A DNA stretch of 24,281 nt. Origin: a virus (Duplodnaviria; Heunggongvirae; Uroviricota; Caudoviricetes). The position numbers were made by a program, and so were the translations under genes. Below the pieces are notes generated by a model. It searched no databases. It was not told the DNA's origin and worked only from the letters and a program-made list of their open reading frames with translations. The stretch is from the IMG/VR virus record IMGVR_UViG_2675903394_000002, positions 1 to 24,281 of that record. One strand, given 5' to 3'. Shown here one piece after another: positions 3,372 to 15,291 of the stretch (the stretch's first letter is position 1; every line of letters starts with the position of its first letter).

Positions 3372-3397
<26 letters not shown>

Positions 3398-3917
3398 TCA
3401 GCAACCCCGGTATCAGTTCATCCAGCGCGGCTGCTTTGTTCATGGCTTTGATGATATCCCGTTTCAGGAAATCAACATGTCGGTTTTCCAGTTCCGGAAA
3501 ACGCCGCTGCACCGACAGGGGGATCCCGTCGAGAATACTGGCAATTTCACCTGCGATCCGCGACAGCACGAAAGTACAGAATGCGGTTTCCACCACTTCA
3601 GCGGAGTCTCTGGCATTTTTCAGCTCCTGTGCATCGGCCTGCGCACGCGTAAGTCGATGGCGTTCGTACTCAATAGTCCCTGGCTGGAGATCTGTCTCGC
3701 TGGCCTGCCGCAGTTCTTCAACCTCCCGGCGCAGCTTTTCGTTCTCAATTTCAGCATCCCTTTCGGCATACCATTTTATGACGGCGGCAGAGTCATAAAG
3801 CACCTCATTGCCCTTGCCACCGCCTCGCAGAACGGGCATTCCCTGTTCCTGCCAGTTCTGAATGGTACGGATACTCGCACCGAAAATGTCAGCCAGCTGC
3901 TTTTTATTGACTTCCAT
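3372..3917 (-). CDS. Nu1: Terminase small subunit gpNu1 (181 aa)
   Basis: The 181-aa ORF MEVNKKQLADIFGASIRTIQNWQEQGMPVLRGGGKGNEVLYDSAAV... matches lambda Nu1 and lies immediately next to cos. Confidence 0.95.
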
Positions 3918-4180
3918 TGTTCATTCCACGGACAAAAACAGAGAAAGGAAACGACAGAGGCCAAAAAGCTCGCTTTCAGCACCTGTCGTTTCCTTTCTTT
4001 TCAGGGGGTATTTTAAATAAAAACATTAAGTTACGACGAAGAAGAACGGAAACGCCTTAAACCGGAAAATTTTCATAAATAGCGAAAACTCGCGAGGTCG
4101 CCGCCCCGTAGCCTGCCGGATCGCTGGAAAGGACCCAGCTACTAGCGAATGCCAGTAGCCAAGGTGGGCTGCGGGCTTAA
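3918..4180 (-). other. cos site (cosB, cosN, cosQ); the cosN 12-nt cohesive-end sequence is at 4095-4106
   Basis: The reverse complement of 3900-4106 reads GGGCGGCGACCTCGCGAGTTTTCGCTATTTATGAAAATTTTCCGGTTTAAGGCG..., the lambda left end up to the Nu1 start. The sequence beyond 4106 matches the lambda right end (cosQ side). Confidence 0.85.
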
Positions 4181-5679: not shown

Positions 5680-6147
5680 TTATTTTAAGCACTGCATCCT
5701 GATGTATTCCTGCAACGTCCTTAATGCGGCTTGATCACTGATGATTCCATCTCTGATACCGAGAACGTTTCGTCCAGCAACTGGAGAGAGTTCGACGGTG
5801 GCATCATTGCCCATGCCGGAGGCGCTGGAGGTTTTGGCTGAGGATGGCACAGGACATTTGCCTTTGACGAGCACCCGACCACCATTATTAAGCTTGCGCC
5901 GAAGAGCATCATTTTCAGCTTTCGCATCAGCTAACTCCTTCGTGTATTTAGCATCGAGTGCAGCAACATCACGCTGACGCACCTGCATGTCAGTAATTGT
6001 CGCGTTCGCCAGTTTCAGTTCTCTGGCATTTTTGTCGCGCTGCTCTTTGTAGGAGATGGCGTTATCACGGTAATGATTAACAGCCAACGACAGGCAGACG
6101 ATGATGCAGATAACCAGTGTGGAGATAATCGTGGTAACTCTGCTCAT
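5680..6147 (-). CDS. Rz: Spanin inner-membrane subunit (i-spanin) Rz
   Basis: [55 protein letters not shown]... closely resembles lambda Rz: N-terminal TM helix plus coiled-coil. The start overlaps the endolysin stop (ATGA). Confidence 0.9.
5721..5927 (-). CDS. Rz1: Spanin outer-membrane lipoprotein subunit (o-spanin) Rz1, embedded in Rz in the +1 frame
   Basis: [21 protein letters not shown]...[16 protein letters not shown]: lipobox (VVGC) followed by a proline-rich segment, lying entirely inside Rz, as for lambda Rz1. Confidence 0.8.
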
Positions 6148-10891: not shown

Positions 10892-10920
10892 GTCACCGGA
10901 GTTGTTCAGGCTCCGGTGAC
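10892..10920 (-). terminator. Perfect 10-bp inverted repeat (gtcaccggag - 9 nt - ctccggtgac) between ybcM and ybcN; stem-loop, possible terminator or attenuator
   Basis: Seen directly. Neither strand has a strong U tract after it, so its function is uncertain. Confidence 0.35.
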
Positions 10921-10984
10921 ATAATTATGCCGTGTTGATTTCCCAAAATCAAAATCGATAGAATTGCTCCTTCTTAAAACACTT

Positions 10985-11782
10985 TTACTCTCTGGAAGCT
11001 TTTCTTATCTCTCTTGGTGTTATATTAAAACGATTATGAAATCTTTCTGTAAAACGAGAAGGACACTTATAACCATTTTCTCTGGCAATCTCGCTTATAG
11101 GTTTTACCGTCGTTTGTATAGCAGACAACGCATTATTTAACCTCACATCGTCCAGTATACTTTGGAAACTTACCCCCTCGCTTGCTAGACGGCGATGTAA
11201 TGTAGAAACAGAAATGTAGAGATATCGAGCAACCTTGTTTGCTGTCCATTTTGTGCCGGGTTCGGATAGCAGCAGGTTATAACAACGACTTATCAATGAT
11301 TGTTTACTATATGATAAAAGTAAATGATTAACATGATTCACTCCTAACGAAAGTAGAACGCCCATTGCTAAGTGCTCCTGAATTTTAGTTGAGAAGCCTC
11401 GGGAAACAGATGTTTTTAGTTGCTCCCAACAATATATTAACTCAGGATTCTGAGGTAAAAAGAAACTTGTTTTGTTACGTATTTGATCAGTTACCGTATA
11501 AAGTTTTTGGAAACTCTCAATTAAATCAATGGGTAAGTAAAGCATTTCTGCAAGATAAAGCCCTGCTTCAGGATAATTCTCAATATAAAATTCATAACCA
11601 CAAGGAAATAATATTATTTGATTATTATCAACAGTTAAAGTATGCGTCTCCCAATTGATAACTTTCTTTCCCTGACGGATACGACACAAAGCTGGCATAA
11701 GAGGCTTAACCCTATGAATCTCATGATGTTTATGCATCCGTATTTCTTCGATCTTTAAGTTAGTCTTACCTCTTGCCAGCAT
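10985..11782 (-). CDS. ybcM: AraC-family transcriptional regulator (265 aa)
   Basis: C-terminal AraC-type HTH region (…[41 protein letters not shown]…); size and position match DLP12 ybcM. Confidence 0.85.
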
Positions 11783-11791
11783 ACTCTCACC

Positions 11792-12343
11792 CTACTTTAT
11801 CTCATAAACTGGTGTTATCTCAGCGGTTGCGATTTTATTAGCATTAAGCATATAACCAACTAACGCTCCGCTGGAGTTAGAATCTACAGGAATCTTTTCA
11901 GTTTTTAGAGCCCATACTTTAAACTGGTAATGATGTGGTTTATCTCCTTTAGGAGGACATGCGCCACCAAACCCAGCATAGCCAAAATCATTTCGGCCTT
12001 GAACAGCACCAGTCGGCAGTTTTGTTCCATCACGTCTCCCTGCATCAACGGGCAAATATGTTATTGTTGCTGGAATATTAACAACAGTCCAATGCCACCA
12101 ACCACTGCCTGTAGGTGCATCTGGATCATATACAGTTACGGCAAAGCTTTTGGTACCTTCAGGAACACCAGACCAGGTTAATGAGGGCGATGTATTACCA
12201 CCTTCACACCCAAATCCAGAAAAGACATGAGACGTTGTAAGTTGCTCTCCTGTTTTTATTTCATTACTAGTGACCTGAAATGCTGCAGCCTGCGCAGAAA
12301 ATGTTATGAATGCCAATACAGTTGAAACGATAAGTGTTTTCAT
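11792..12343 (-). CDS. ybcL: Secreted PEBP/YbcL-family protein (183 aa) with signal peptide
   Basis: N-terminal signal peptide MKTLIVSTVLAFITFSAQAAA; resembles E. coli YbcL. Confidence 0.85.
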   Translation of the reverse strand: MKTLIVSTVLAFITFSAQAAAFQVTSNEIKTGEQLTTSHVFSGFGCEGGNTSPSLTWSGVPEGTKSFAVTVYDPDAPTGSGWWHWTVVNIPATITYLPVDAGRRDGTKLPTGAVQGRNDFGYAGFGGACPPKGDKPHHYQFKVWALKTEKIPVDSNSSGALVGYMLNANKIATAEITPVYEIK

Positions 12344-12559
12344 AAAAACCTCTTTGTTATGATCTATCGTTATTTTATTTGATATTCCTTTATCTCATTA
12401 TGCATAAAGGCGCAATGTTTATGCAAAAGCAATCACAATTGTACCCCCAACCCAATTATTTGCCACAATATACACAAAGCACATTGATACTATCTAAAAA
12501 CCCTGCTTTATTATTAGTAATACCTACGAAAGTCGGTGTTATTTTTTAACCTACCATTC

Positions 12560-12609
12560 AAAATACGTGACATACACCATTTTGCTCATAATAATTTGTC
12601 ACGTATTTT
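12560..12609. repeat. Perfect 13-bp inverted repeat (aaaatacgtgaca ... tgtcacgtatttt) with a 24-bp AT-rich spacer in the ybcK-ybcL intergenic region
   Basis: Arms at 12560-12572 and 12597-12609 are exact reverse complements. Confidence 0.6.
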
Positions 12610-12807
12610 CAGTATTTGAATCTGCGACCAAGAGTTCTCACCTAACAAATGATTAAGATTGTATAGCTCATTTACTACCCCAATACAGCCGTACAAAACT
12701 CGCTTGTGGGAGCAAACAAAGTAATTACCCATTAAGTTTCGTCAAAGATAATTAATTCTGTCTTGCACTTTATCACCATAGCATAACTTAAAATCCGAGA
12801 TCATTAT

Positions 12808-14334
12808 TTAGAAATAAATCTCACCATCAACCATATATTTGAGAGCACTTATCGCCTGCTGGGCGGATATTACTTTCATTAAAGGATAGTGTTTAAAAAC
12901 AATGCCATTCATAAAATAGATACCACAGGTTTTATTATCCGTATTAATTATGATTTTTTCGAATGTTTTATAGGCAAGTGTACGGCATAACTCTCGTCCA
13001 TTTTTACTGGTTAAGTCAATAGCATAAAAATCACTGAATGAATTTACACCTTTACTCTTCAAAGTTTTCAATGATACCGAAGCCCTTCGTAATTCCTTAT
13101 CTAATAGTCTTATTTTCTCTGCTATAGCGGTAACTTCAGGCGCGACAGACAATGCAACGATTAAATTATTAATTTTCATCTGAAGCTCAATAATTTTTAA
13201 CTCTAAAGTTTCATTAGCATCTTTCTTGTTTTCAACTGGTTGAATTTTGCTACAATTAAAAAGCAATTCATTAATGATATTATAATCAACCAAATCTCTT
13301 TTTATTGATGGCCTGTCACATCGATGTAATCTTCTCATCGGACAAACATAATAGCCATGCAAACTTCCAGATACCGCATGAACAATCATGGTATTACCAC
13401 AAGCCTCACACTTCATAACTGTTCGAAGTAGATTTATTAGCATAGGATTCTTGCTACTATTGCTAATACCAAAAGGTGCCAACCGAATTTCCTGTACAGC
13501 GTAAAACAAATCATCTGATATAACTCTGGGATAATAGCCAGCGATTTCACTTATCCCTTTCCCTCTTGCACGATATGAAGGTACGCATATACCTATCAGA
13601 GCTTTATTCGCTAATAATTTTTCAATTACAGAAGGTCCCCATGCACTTTCTTTTCCTGAGAAATTCTTTACAGCATGATCATTTAAATACTTGGCTATTG
13701 CATTCAATGAGCGCCTTTCCATCCTGAGTTTAAAAATTAGCTCAATAGTTTTCACCCTGTCGGGGTCTGGAACAAAAGCCGTTCTTTTGTCATCTAAGGA
13801 GAGCCATCTCGGACAAGACGCCGTCATAATCGTACCTGATTCCATTGCATCCTGCCGTTTTTTCTTCCATGATAATTTAACCCGACTTGACTTTATCTCG
13901 CTTTCTTCATTTGCCCTTTGTGCTATAAGTATGGCTTTTATTAATGAATATGGCTCATTCAAAGAGTCAATATTATAGACTGTATTGTCGCAAAGAGTTA
14001 TAACATCAATACCGTGATTCAAAATCAATTTCAGACGTTCAATCGCTTCACCGACTTTTTCTCTTGAAAGTCTGTCCAGACTTTCAACTAACAATGTAGT
14101 TCCTGGCAATATATAACCATGCTCTATAGCATCTAAAAATTCCGAAAAAGCTCCTGATTGTGCATGCTTTCCTTTGAATGCACTTAATCCTAAATCTTCA
14201 TATGTTATGGTATCAAGATAATAATCACTATTTACCTTTAACCATTCAGCAATAAGTCTTCTCTGTCGGTTTAATGAGTCACCAGACATCTGACCTGGTG
14301 ATGAAAATCGCATATATGCTATGGCTTTTTTCAT
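12808..14334 (-). CDS. ybcK: Large serine recombinase (508 aa)
   Basis: N-terminal resolvase-type catalytic motif AYMRFSSPGQ and a Cys-rich region (CPRW…C…CEACG…CPMRRLHRC) typical of large serine recombinases; size matches DLP12 YbcK. Confidence 0.85.
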   Translation of the reverse strand: MKKAIAYMRFSSPGQMSGDSLNRQRRLIAEWLKVNSDYYLDTITYEDLGLSAFKGKHAQSGAFSEFLDAIEHGYILPGTTLLVESLDRLSREKVGEAIERLKLILNHGIDVITLCDNTVYNIDSLNEPYSLIKAILIAQRANEESEIKSSRVKLSWKKKRQDAMESGTIMTASCPRWLSLDDKRTAFVPDPDRVKTIELIFKLRMERRSLNAIAKYLNDHAVKNFSGKESAWGPSVIEKLLANKALIGICVPSYRARGKGISEIAGYYPRVISDDLFYAVQEIRLAPFGISNSSKNPMLINLLRTVMKCEACGNTMIVHAVSGSLHGYYVCPMRRLHRCDRPSIKRDLVDYNIINELLFNCSKIQPVENKKDANETLELKIIELQMKINNLIVALSVAPEVTAIAEKIRLLDKELRRASVSLKTLKSKGVNSFSDFYAIDLTSKNGRELCRTLAYKTFEKIIINTDNKTCGIYFMNGIVFKHYPLMKVISAQQAISALKYMVDGEIYF

Positions 14335-14588
14335 GGTGACACCTGCTAACGTATGCTTTTATAAACCTTAGTGGTGGGATATAATTTTTGTTTAATTTTT
14401 ATTTAAAAAGACAATTAAGGTCACATTATCTTGAATATACAACAATAATCGTATTGCAATTTTCTTACGCCATAATCTTGAAAGCACAAAAGAATACATA
14501 AAAAATAAAGACATTAACAAAAAGCATAAAACGAGGCTCATATAAATATAAGAGCCTCCATATTTTAGTCGTTTAGAAACAAATTATT

Positions 14589-14921
14589 TTAATGTGGTGT
14601 GCTTCGTGACAATAAATTAATAACCAACACACCGGCACAAATCAACATCATGCCTATAATGGCTGGCAGGTCCAGCCGTTGGCCGAAAAATCCCCATGAC
14701 AGTAAACTAATCAGGACAATACCGACTCCTGACCAGATAGCATAAGCAATCCCTGTAGGAATATAAGCCAGCGTCTGAGCTAATAACCAGAATGATGCAC
14801 AATAACAAATAATTGTACCAACAGATGGCCATAACCGTGTAAAACCTTCTGAAAACTTCATTAAGGTTGTACCAATGACCTCTGCAAGTATTGCACCACC
14901 AAGATAAATATAAGGGTTCAT
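14589..14921 (-). CDS. emrE: Small multidrug resistance (SMR) efflux transporter EmrE (110 aa)
   Basis: MNPYIYLGGAILAEVIGTTLMKFSEGFTRLWPSVGTIICYCASFWLLAQTLAYIPTGIAYAIWSGVGIVLISLLSWGFFGQRLD... is near-identical to E. coli EmrE with four TM helices. The ORF track extends to 14975. Confidence 0.9.
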   Translation of the reverse strand: MNPYIYLGGAILAEVIGTTLMKFSEGFTRLWPSVGTIICYCASFWLLAQTLAYIPTGIAYAIWSGVGIVLISLLSWGFFGQRLDLPAIIGMMLICAGVLVINLLSRSTPH

Positions 14922-14988
14922 AGCATATTCTTTCCTGTTCAAACTGGAGAGAATTGTACTACAGTTTGAACTCAACTCACCTGTTTCA

Positions 14989-15291
14989 TCATTGTGTTCC
15001 CATTGATGTTCTTTTATATACCCTCAATACCCGTTTCATCGCGGCACTCTGGCGACACTCCTTAAAAATCAGATTCGTGCTCACCTTTCCTTCCCGTTCT
15101 TCTCTGGTAGCGAACCGGTAATACACCGTTCGCCAGACCTTACCATCAACGACCAGGATTCCTGCCCGCGCCATTTTAGCCGCAGCCTGATTTATGCTGG
15201 TTACGGTTGCGCCTGTTACCGCGGCAACGTCCTGTGCACAGAAGCTCTTATGCGTCCCCAGGTAATGAATAATTGCCTCTTTGCCCGTCAT
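14989..15291 (-). CDS. ren: Ren protein (100 aa)
   Basis: MTGKEAIIHYLGTHKSFCAQDVAAVTGATVTSINQAAAKMARAGILVVDGKVWRTVYYRFATREEREGK... matches lambda Ren. Confidence 0.85.
   Translation of the reverse strand: MTGKEAIIHYLGTHKSFCAQDVAAVTGATVTSINQAAAKMARAGILVVDGKVWRTVYYRFATREEREGKVSTNLIFKECRQSAAMKRVLRVYKRTSMGTQ

Follow-up and report, generated by a model that had tools for sequence, protein, structure and literature searches.

Between the gene of a large serine recombinase and an operon controlled by one of its own products, the E. coli prophage DNA considered here carries a perfect inverted repeat, and we asked what, if anything, this repeat does. The DNA is a stretch of 24,281 nucleotides (IMG/VR record IMGVR_UViG_2675903394_000002, referred to as the window throughout) from a DLP12-type lambdoid prophage of E. 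coli, with 99% identity to K-12 MG1655 over the region of the palindrome. A first-pass annotation, made from the sequence alone, had described a 13-bp perfect repeat with a 24-bp spacer, too long to be expected by chance, and had put forward three functions for it: a binding site for an AraC-family or other regulator, a recombinase recognition site, or a bidirectional terminator. We therefore examined the geometry and rarity of the repeat, its distribution, the proteins and promoters mapped around it, and the RNA structures that it can form.

A perfect repeat in an AT-rich prophage island

On the minus strand of the window, the genes are ordered ren, emrE (14589-14921), ylcJ (14392-14541), ybcK (12808-14334), ybcL (11792-12343), ybcM (10985-11782) and ybcN/ninB, with an intergenic spacer of 464 bp (12344-12807) separating ybcK from ybcL. 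The transcriptionally upstream neighbour of the palindrome, ybcK, is identified by its Pfam domains and by the K-12 annotation as encoding a large serine recombinase (LSR) of 508 amino acids, with the full domain set of such enzymes (Resolvase, Recombinase and Zn_ribbon_recom). Its downstream neighbour, ybcL, is the first gene of the ybcLM operon, which is regulated by its own product YbcM, an AraC-family regulator (PMC8464067). The cargo island at this locus (~10900-15000) has a G+C content of 29-45%, against ~52% in the flanking phage DNA.

The palindrome consists of a left arm, AAAATACGTGACA (12560-12572), an asymmetric 24-bp spacer, TACACCATTTTGCTCATAATAATT (12573-12596), and a right arm, TGTCACGTATTTT (12597-12609), i.e. 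50 bp of sequence AAAATACGTGACA-TACACCATTTTGCTCATAATAATT-TGTCACGTATTTT (12560-12609) with its centre between G12584 and C12585. The two arms are exact reverse complements, with 13 of 13 positions paired across 24 nt. Dyad symmetry ends sharply at the arms: no pairing is seen between the bases that flank them on the outside, and within the spacer symmetry holds at only 3 of 12 positions. In the direction of transcription, 199 nt separate the ybcK stop codon from the palindrome, and another 216 nt separate the palindrome from the ybcL start codon. In MG1655 it corresponds to ~570,627-570,676 (NC_000913.3) or 569,850-569,899 (NC_000913.2). For these conversions, the NZ_CP184745.1 position was taken as 583237 minus the window coordinate, and NC_000913.2 positions were brought to NZ_CP184745.1 with an offset of +778, verified on mdlA and on the ybcL start.

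When the window was simulated with a first-order Markov model, 0.025 inverted repeats with perfect 13-nt arms and a spacer of 3-60 nt were expected per window, and the probability of finding one or more was 0.0175; for the AT-rich island alone, this probability was 0.0065. The palindrome is rarer than chance would provide in one window, although a whole-genome scan would still meet a few such repeats by chance. The G+C content around it is 0.33-0.34. Thus, the description of an exact, improbable repeat in AT-rich intergenic DNA between the serine recombinase gene and ybcL is borne out. One other such repeat is present in the window, at 3942-3998. Matches to the arm motif number 13 in the window against 8.0 +/- 2.9 by chance, so that additional copies are not above chance.

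Known families offered no counterpart. An Rfam search at gathering scores returned no match at the palindrome, a permissive Rfam scan returned only matches with E > 1 to animal miRNA and snoRNA models, and when the literature was searched for transcription factor motifs matching the arms, only a common siRNA control was retrieved. A REP/BIME element, MITE or IS remnant was also considered; we rejected it because the palindrome is single-copy, with one copy per genome in 675 genomes and no further copies in the window. The palindrome is an unannotated example of a familiar kind, namely the inverted repeats that lie between genes of AT-rich prophage DNA. A 48-aa open reading frame on the minus strand (12586-12732) overlaps the right arm and half of the 24-bp spacer. 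The annotation of phage PhiR70_1 lists this frame as a hypothetical protein, and no obvious ribosome-binding site precedes it; its peptide matched no Pfam family and was not mentioned in the literature searched.

Distribution of the palindrome and its relation to YbcK

The palindrome lies in a joint segment of ~240 bp (~12500-12745), which is restricted to loci with the ybcK and ybcLM modules side by side and is without homologue elsewhere. This segment (12500-12737) is found in 675 of 5,426 complete E. coli genomes, always once, complete and at least 98% identical, and also in three phages (PhiR phages). In the same set of genomes ybcK is present in 1,424, of which 1,398 at 80% coverage or more; therefore, at least 723 E. 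coli genomes carry ybcK without the palindrome. On the other side of the joint, emrE is directly joined to ybcL-ybcM, with neither ylcJ nor ybcK, in 2,631 of the 5,426 complete genomes as well as in E. coli Nissle, and in the 2,631 genomes with such EcN-type loci ybcLM occurs without the palindrome. This commoner emrE-ybcL-ybcM locus, devoid of the ~2-kb segment, is located near fliE.

Homology between the window and the EcN-type ybcLM locus extends from ybcL to ~12498-12500 and resumes at ~14583-14592, at the emrE stop codon. The ~2-kb indel between these points contains the palindrome, ybcK and ylcJ. A short A/T-rich direct repeat lies at each edge, TTATTTTTTAA (12540-12550) on the palindrome side and TTATTTTAA (14584-14592) at the emrE stop codon. 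The indel could have arisen by insertion or by microhomology-mediated deletion, both of which fit. When its two ends were compared in both orientations, their resemblance was at chance level, and we accordingly discarded terminal repeats or att half-sites at the indel ends, end-to-end similarity being no better than chance. One gain from the comparison is that ybcK, ylcJ and the palindrome are now seen to form a single ~2-kb indel, by which this locus differs from the much more frequent emrE-ybcL-ybcM arrangement.

A matching boundary is seen from the ybcK side. In the phages Perceval and Turner, as in L122 and other chromosomal prophages, emrE-ylcJ-ybcK is present with 96-99% identity and the palindrome is missing. 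In Perceval and Turner, homology of the ybcK module with the window stops at ~12738-12746, ~65-70 bp past the ybcK stop codon, after which unrelated genes follow. Identity between the window and Perceval falls from near 100% to ~90% over the last ~200 nt of ybcK (~12830-13010), which correspond to positions ~1630-1890 of the alignment, a drop that probably marks a second mosaic boundary, inside ybcK.

When IMG/VR and 185,579 species genomes were searched for both exact arms spaced 24 bp apart, this combination was found only in the E. coli ybcK-palindrome-ybcL context, the carriers being IMG/VR prophage contigs, the three PhiR phages and two E. coli species representatives. Contigs of Opitutae/Verrucomicrobia metagenome-assembled genomes (L049-L110) are rich in ATACGTGACA-N(18-39)-TGTCACGTAT, which varies in spacing and occurs many times per genome. 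These were not retained as homologues of the palindrome: the spacings differ, and they appear to form an unrelated repeat family that shares 10-mer arms. Lack of conservation in otherwise identical islands, together with lack of binding by YbcM and YbcK, had been named in the first-pass annotation as evidence that would speak against a function. As regards conservation and YbcM, this is largely what we observe: the palindrome is confined to one joint and is missing from the many ybcK and ybcLM genomes counted above, and the mapped YbcM site, described below, lies elsewhere.

Within that joint, the sequence hardly varies. Positions 12555-12614, the left arm included, are identical in 672 of the 675 genomes with the joint segment. 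Among 43 copies, 17 sites are variable in the 464-bp intergenic spacer and none in the 50-bp palindrome, where 1.83 would be expected (P(0) = 0.16). All copies are recent descendants of one sequence, and therefore this conservation neither shows nor excludes selection. The perfection of the arms would fit a recent mutational origin better than a long-maintained function, and we infer that the palindrome is not under selection.

These distributions bear directly on the suggestion of a recombinase site. In its most specific form, this explanation holds that the palindrome is an attP-like recognition site of YbcK, retained in the DLP12-type arrangement only, such that ybcK and the palindrome would constitute a self-contained recombination module. 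The palindrome falls within the ~2-kb ylcJ-ybcK indel, 10 bp from one of its edges, and a complete LSR gene ends 199 bp upstream of it. Its 50-bp span, with strongly symmetric, 13-bp perfect outer arms around an asymmetric inner 24 bp, is of attP-like size. The attP sites of phiC31, Bxb1 and A118 are similar in size and layout, at ~50 bp with symmetric outer blocks, an asymmetric centre and an LSR gene nearby, a likeness that serves as a lead only. Unlike these sites, however, the palindrome does not travel with its presumed recombinase: at least 723 genomes, Perceval and Turner have ybcK and lack it, and YbcK relatives at 41-61% identity show neither a comparable repeat nor DNA similarity to the intergenic spacer. 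Recombination products are likewise not seen. Split halves of the attL/attR type were sought in the 5,426 E. coli genomes and in IMG/VR and only intact sites were found, all 675 genomic matches covering at least 80% of the joint segment at one place each; in L112 the contig seemed to end within the spacer, which was dismissed as an artefact of the stored stretch, since a second stretch of the same contig (L158) is intact. The dissimilarity of the two indel ends also argues against this explanation. Finally, serine-integrase sites require an asymmetric central dinucleotide for polarity, and that of the palindrome, GC (G12584-C12585), is self-complementary and set in an inner 24 bp without dyad symmetry. 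Together, these results make recognition by YbcK very unlikely.

We know of no substrate for YbcK, and it is for this reason that the palindrome would gain interest only if YbcK acted on it. Were that so, ybcK and the palindrome would represent a compact recombination module carried as lambdoid-phage cargo, and would offer a first handle on the function of the widespread "moron" YbcK-family enzymes. A further gain of the survey is that recombinases of this family are found repeatedly, each as a lone cargo gene, in prophages unrelated to one another. Relatives with 55-61% identity occur in this way (L114, 3001-5432; L116, 3001-4530; L117, 3001-5020; L120, 308-1837), some of them in lambdoid nin regions. 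At this level of identity, an Atlantibacter relative is located at the end of a Mu/P2-like prophage, adjoining ssrA and smpB, and a Yersinia enterocolitica relative lies beside a P2-like ogr gene and an apparent tRNA 3' fragment; the latter was judged by eye, and ARAGORN found no tRNA there. Relatives with 41-51% identity are found on Pantoea and Duffyella plasmids.

Regulators and promoters around the palindrome

AraC-type regulators can act from distal sites by looping. The suggestion of a regulator-binding site therefore takes its most direct form in YbcM, which is encoded in the adjacent operon and autoregulates it, the palindrome being a distal site that loops to a promoter-proximal one. 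The position of the latter is known: in ChIP-exo under paraquat, the strongest YbcM peak (S/N 357) is at 570015-570048 (NC_000913.2), where RNA polymerase is bound as well (PMC8464067). This site corresponds to 12411-12444 of the window (minus strand), by the ybcLM promoter, leaving 116 bp between this site and the palindrome. The ChIP-exo list of the same study contains no second ybcL-associated YbcM peak and none at the palindrome (PMC8464067). A RegulonDB-type transcription start site (TSS) of ybcL at 570070 (NC_000913.2) falls at ~12389 of the window (PMC4448311). With the TSS at this position, the YbcM site spans ~-22 to -55. Such a location is usual for AraC-type activators. The palindrome shares with this mapped operator the intergenic region and a place upstream of the regulator's own operon, but differs from it in that its centre is at ~-195, ~195 bp upstream of the TSS, with no peak called. 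The ybcLM loci of EcN type, in 2,631 genomes, moreover lack the palindrome. YbcM binding is thus mapped at the promoter and not on the palindrome as had been proposed, and a looping function of the kind described is barely credible. What the mapping does provide is a clean layout of a much-used K-12 locus, including the position of YbcM binding relative to the ybcLM promoter.

Several other signals have been placed in this region. A promoter-like sequence, GTGGCA-17-TACAAT (12438-12466, minus strand, with its -10 element at 12443-12438), was assigned to ybcLM as constitutive by RpoD genomic SELEX, and the ybcK-ybcL intergenic spacer is flagged as H-NS-bound (PMC3946193). The start of ybcLM differs by source, being given by the TSS at 12389, by a weak Cappable-seq TSS at 12365 or by the -10 element of the RpoD SELEX promoter. 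In the + strand part of the Cappable-seq table, no sense-strand TSS is entered between 568538 and 570094 (NC_000913.2), hence none at the palindrome (PMC4782308). The nearby PhoB and sigma-54 sites lie inside ybcK and emrE, away from the palindrome.

The palindrome itself contains a second promoter-like sequence, GTGACA-17-AATAAT (12567-12595, + strand), antisense to ybcK. It may be asked whether the palindrome is simply a sigma-70 promoter, spurious or real, that directs antisense transcription from ~12602. AT-rich, H-NS-bound DNA is known for promoters of this kind. The match, as a consensus match only, reaches 10 of 12 positions with a 17-nt spacer, and RpoD holoenzyme binds the intergenic spacer in genomic SELEX (PMC3946193). 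Against this, the island holds 17 promoter-like matches where shuffling predicts 16.9, exactly the chance rate, and a promoter would leave the palindromic symmetry unexplained. We give very little credence to a promoter as the explanation of the palindrome.

More generally, each arm could be one half-site for some protein besides YbcM; candidates would be regulators of phage or host origin, or a nucleoid protein. Perfect Watson-Crick symmetry is limited to two 13-bp blocks, which lie upstream of a regulated promoter, and a similar geometry is found elsewhere in the window in what is presumably a protein-binding site. This is the other perfect repeat mentioned above, a 16-nt inverted repeat with a 25-nt spacer, AGAAAGGAAACGACAG ... 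CTGTCGTTTCCTTTCT (3942-3957/3983-3998), which directly precedes the Nu1 terminase gene (3372-3917, minus strand). We take it to be the known cosB of lambda-type phages, whose R elements are bound by gpNu1. Both are perfect inverted repeats of 13-16 bp with spacers of 24-25 bp. Their sequences, however, are unrelated, and cosB adjoins the gene of its binding protein and is conserved in lambdoid phages, whereas the palindrome is conserved within one lineage only. The arm centres are 37 bp or 3.5 helical turns apart, which places the arms on opposite faces of the DNA, and this, like the distance of ~195 bp between the centre and the ybcL TSS, does not favour a half-site pair. Nor do the number of arm-motif copies in the window, which is at chance level, the restriction of the motif in E. 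coli to the ybcK-ybcL locus, and the published YbcM, PhoB, sigma-54 and RpoD sites, all of which are elsewhere. No protein is known to us to bind the palindrome, and we consider a half-site pair unlikely.

Hairpin formation and transcription termination at the joint

We then considered the palindrome at the level of RNA. The sense (minus-strand) RNA of 50 nt is predicted to fold at -17 kcal/mol (z = -4.9) into a 13-bp stem with a 24-nt loop, within which a weak inner helix of 6 bp, including three G-U pairs, forms on the sense strand only. The antisense RNA folds at -14 kcal/mol (z = -5.8) with an open 24-nt loop. The stem is composed of a 9-bp core with 4 G-C pairs extended by 4 A-U pairs, resulting from an A4 run upstream and a U4 run downstream. 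After the core, the RNA reads UUUUGAAU on the sense strand and UUUUCAGU on the antisense strand, with 5 U in 8 positions, four of which can pair with the upstream A4.

Could these structures be what the palindrome is for? The corresponding explanation is that it is a selected, functional intrinsic terminator or insulator, possibly bidirectional, at which ybcK transcripts would end short of the ybcLM promoter and antisense ones would be halted from the other side. The palindrome does sit between two same-strand transcription units, and a stable hairpin with A4 upstream and U4 downstream is predicted on both strands, with the inner helix as an extra on the sense strand. Moreover, canonical terminators occupy the equivalent place after relatives of ybcK: compact GC-rich hairpins follow the recombinase gene in L004 (5580-5614), L003 (~5846-5875) and L114 (4919-4946), and the terminator of Perceval at this position reads AGCCCGC-N6-GCGGGCT followed by a T-run. 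These terminators imply that transcription normally ends at this position. In addition, the sense RNA of the intergenic spacer is G-rich and C-poor (GC skew of -0.25 to -0.33 on the + strand) and would therefore be a poor substrate for Rho, so that some intrinsic stop in the spacer would make sense.

Several observations point the other way. The loop of a typical intrinsic terminator is 3-8 nt long, against 24 nt here, and a terminator scan accepted the stem and the U-count but rejected the loop length, leaving the palindrome uncalled. The U-tract is merely UUUU, and the palindrome is dispensable for both neighbours in most genomes. As to transcript 3' ends, by which the first-pass annotation had proposed to examine termination, the accessible part of the Term-seq tables of PMC7815308 shows none at 570,62x-570,69x, which covers the hairpin and the positions next to it, whichever strand is considered, and its only ybcK-tagged 3' end is 568940, near the ybcK 5' end; the locus is silenced and sensitivity there is low. 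A Rho-dependent terminator precedes ybcK (PMC4150792). With silencing by H-NS and Rho, transcripts that reach the palindrome are expected to be rare, which makes the negative 3'-end result weak evidence.

Of the known systems to which the palindrome was compared, it is most like a moron-boundary intrinsic terminator, yet its loop is too long for that class. In common with such terminators, it is an intergenic hairpin that would end one unit ahead of the next promoter, it has an A-run before its stem and a U-run after it, which makes it alike on both strands, and its position is the one used after ybcK relatives. It differs from them in its 24-nt loop, its AU-rich core with 4 G-C pairs, its four U and the missing mapped 3' end. 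Of the bidirectional terminator proposed earlier, the hairpin with its A4/U4 flanks and the terminator position in relatives hold, while the 24-nt loop and the lack of a recorded 3' end go against it. A terminator is the least-bad of the three functional options first put forward, and as a selected function we regard it as possible but doubtful.

The interpretation that we prefer, though with somewhat less than even confidence, is that the palindrome is an orphan and dispensable feature of one mosaic joint, without a dedicated protein partner, and at most a weak, leaky hairpin. In this model, the joint would be a ~240-bp connection, AT-rich and bound by H-NS, between two modules, the emrE-ylcJ-ybcK cargo and ybcL-ybcM. 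A rarely made ybcK transcript (minus strand) would run through the palindrome and fold into the 13-bp stem and 24-nt loop, followed by UUUU. The resulting hairpin may act as a weak, leaky intrinsic stop or as a structure that protects the 3' end, ~95 bp upstream of GTGGCA-17-TACAAT; any termination at the palindrome is probably weak. The arms themselves are assumed to be of mutational origin, for example by template switching at the joint. What weighs against this orphan interpretation is the simulated expectation of 0.025 such repeats per window, which makes pure chance uncomfortable. As it stands, the palindrome matters little, being a hairpin-forming repeat in silenced K-12-type prophage DNA that both modules can do without.

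A further hairpin was observed at the far side of ybcLM, where the AT-rich island ends. This GC-rich structure, GTCACCGGAG-N9-CTCCGGTGAC (10892-10920), lies ~65 bp 3' of the ybcM stop codon and, with a poor U-tract, is a candidate for the end of the ybcLM unit.
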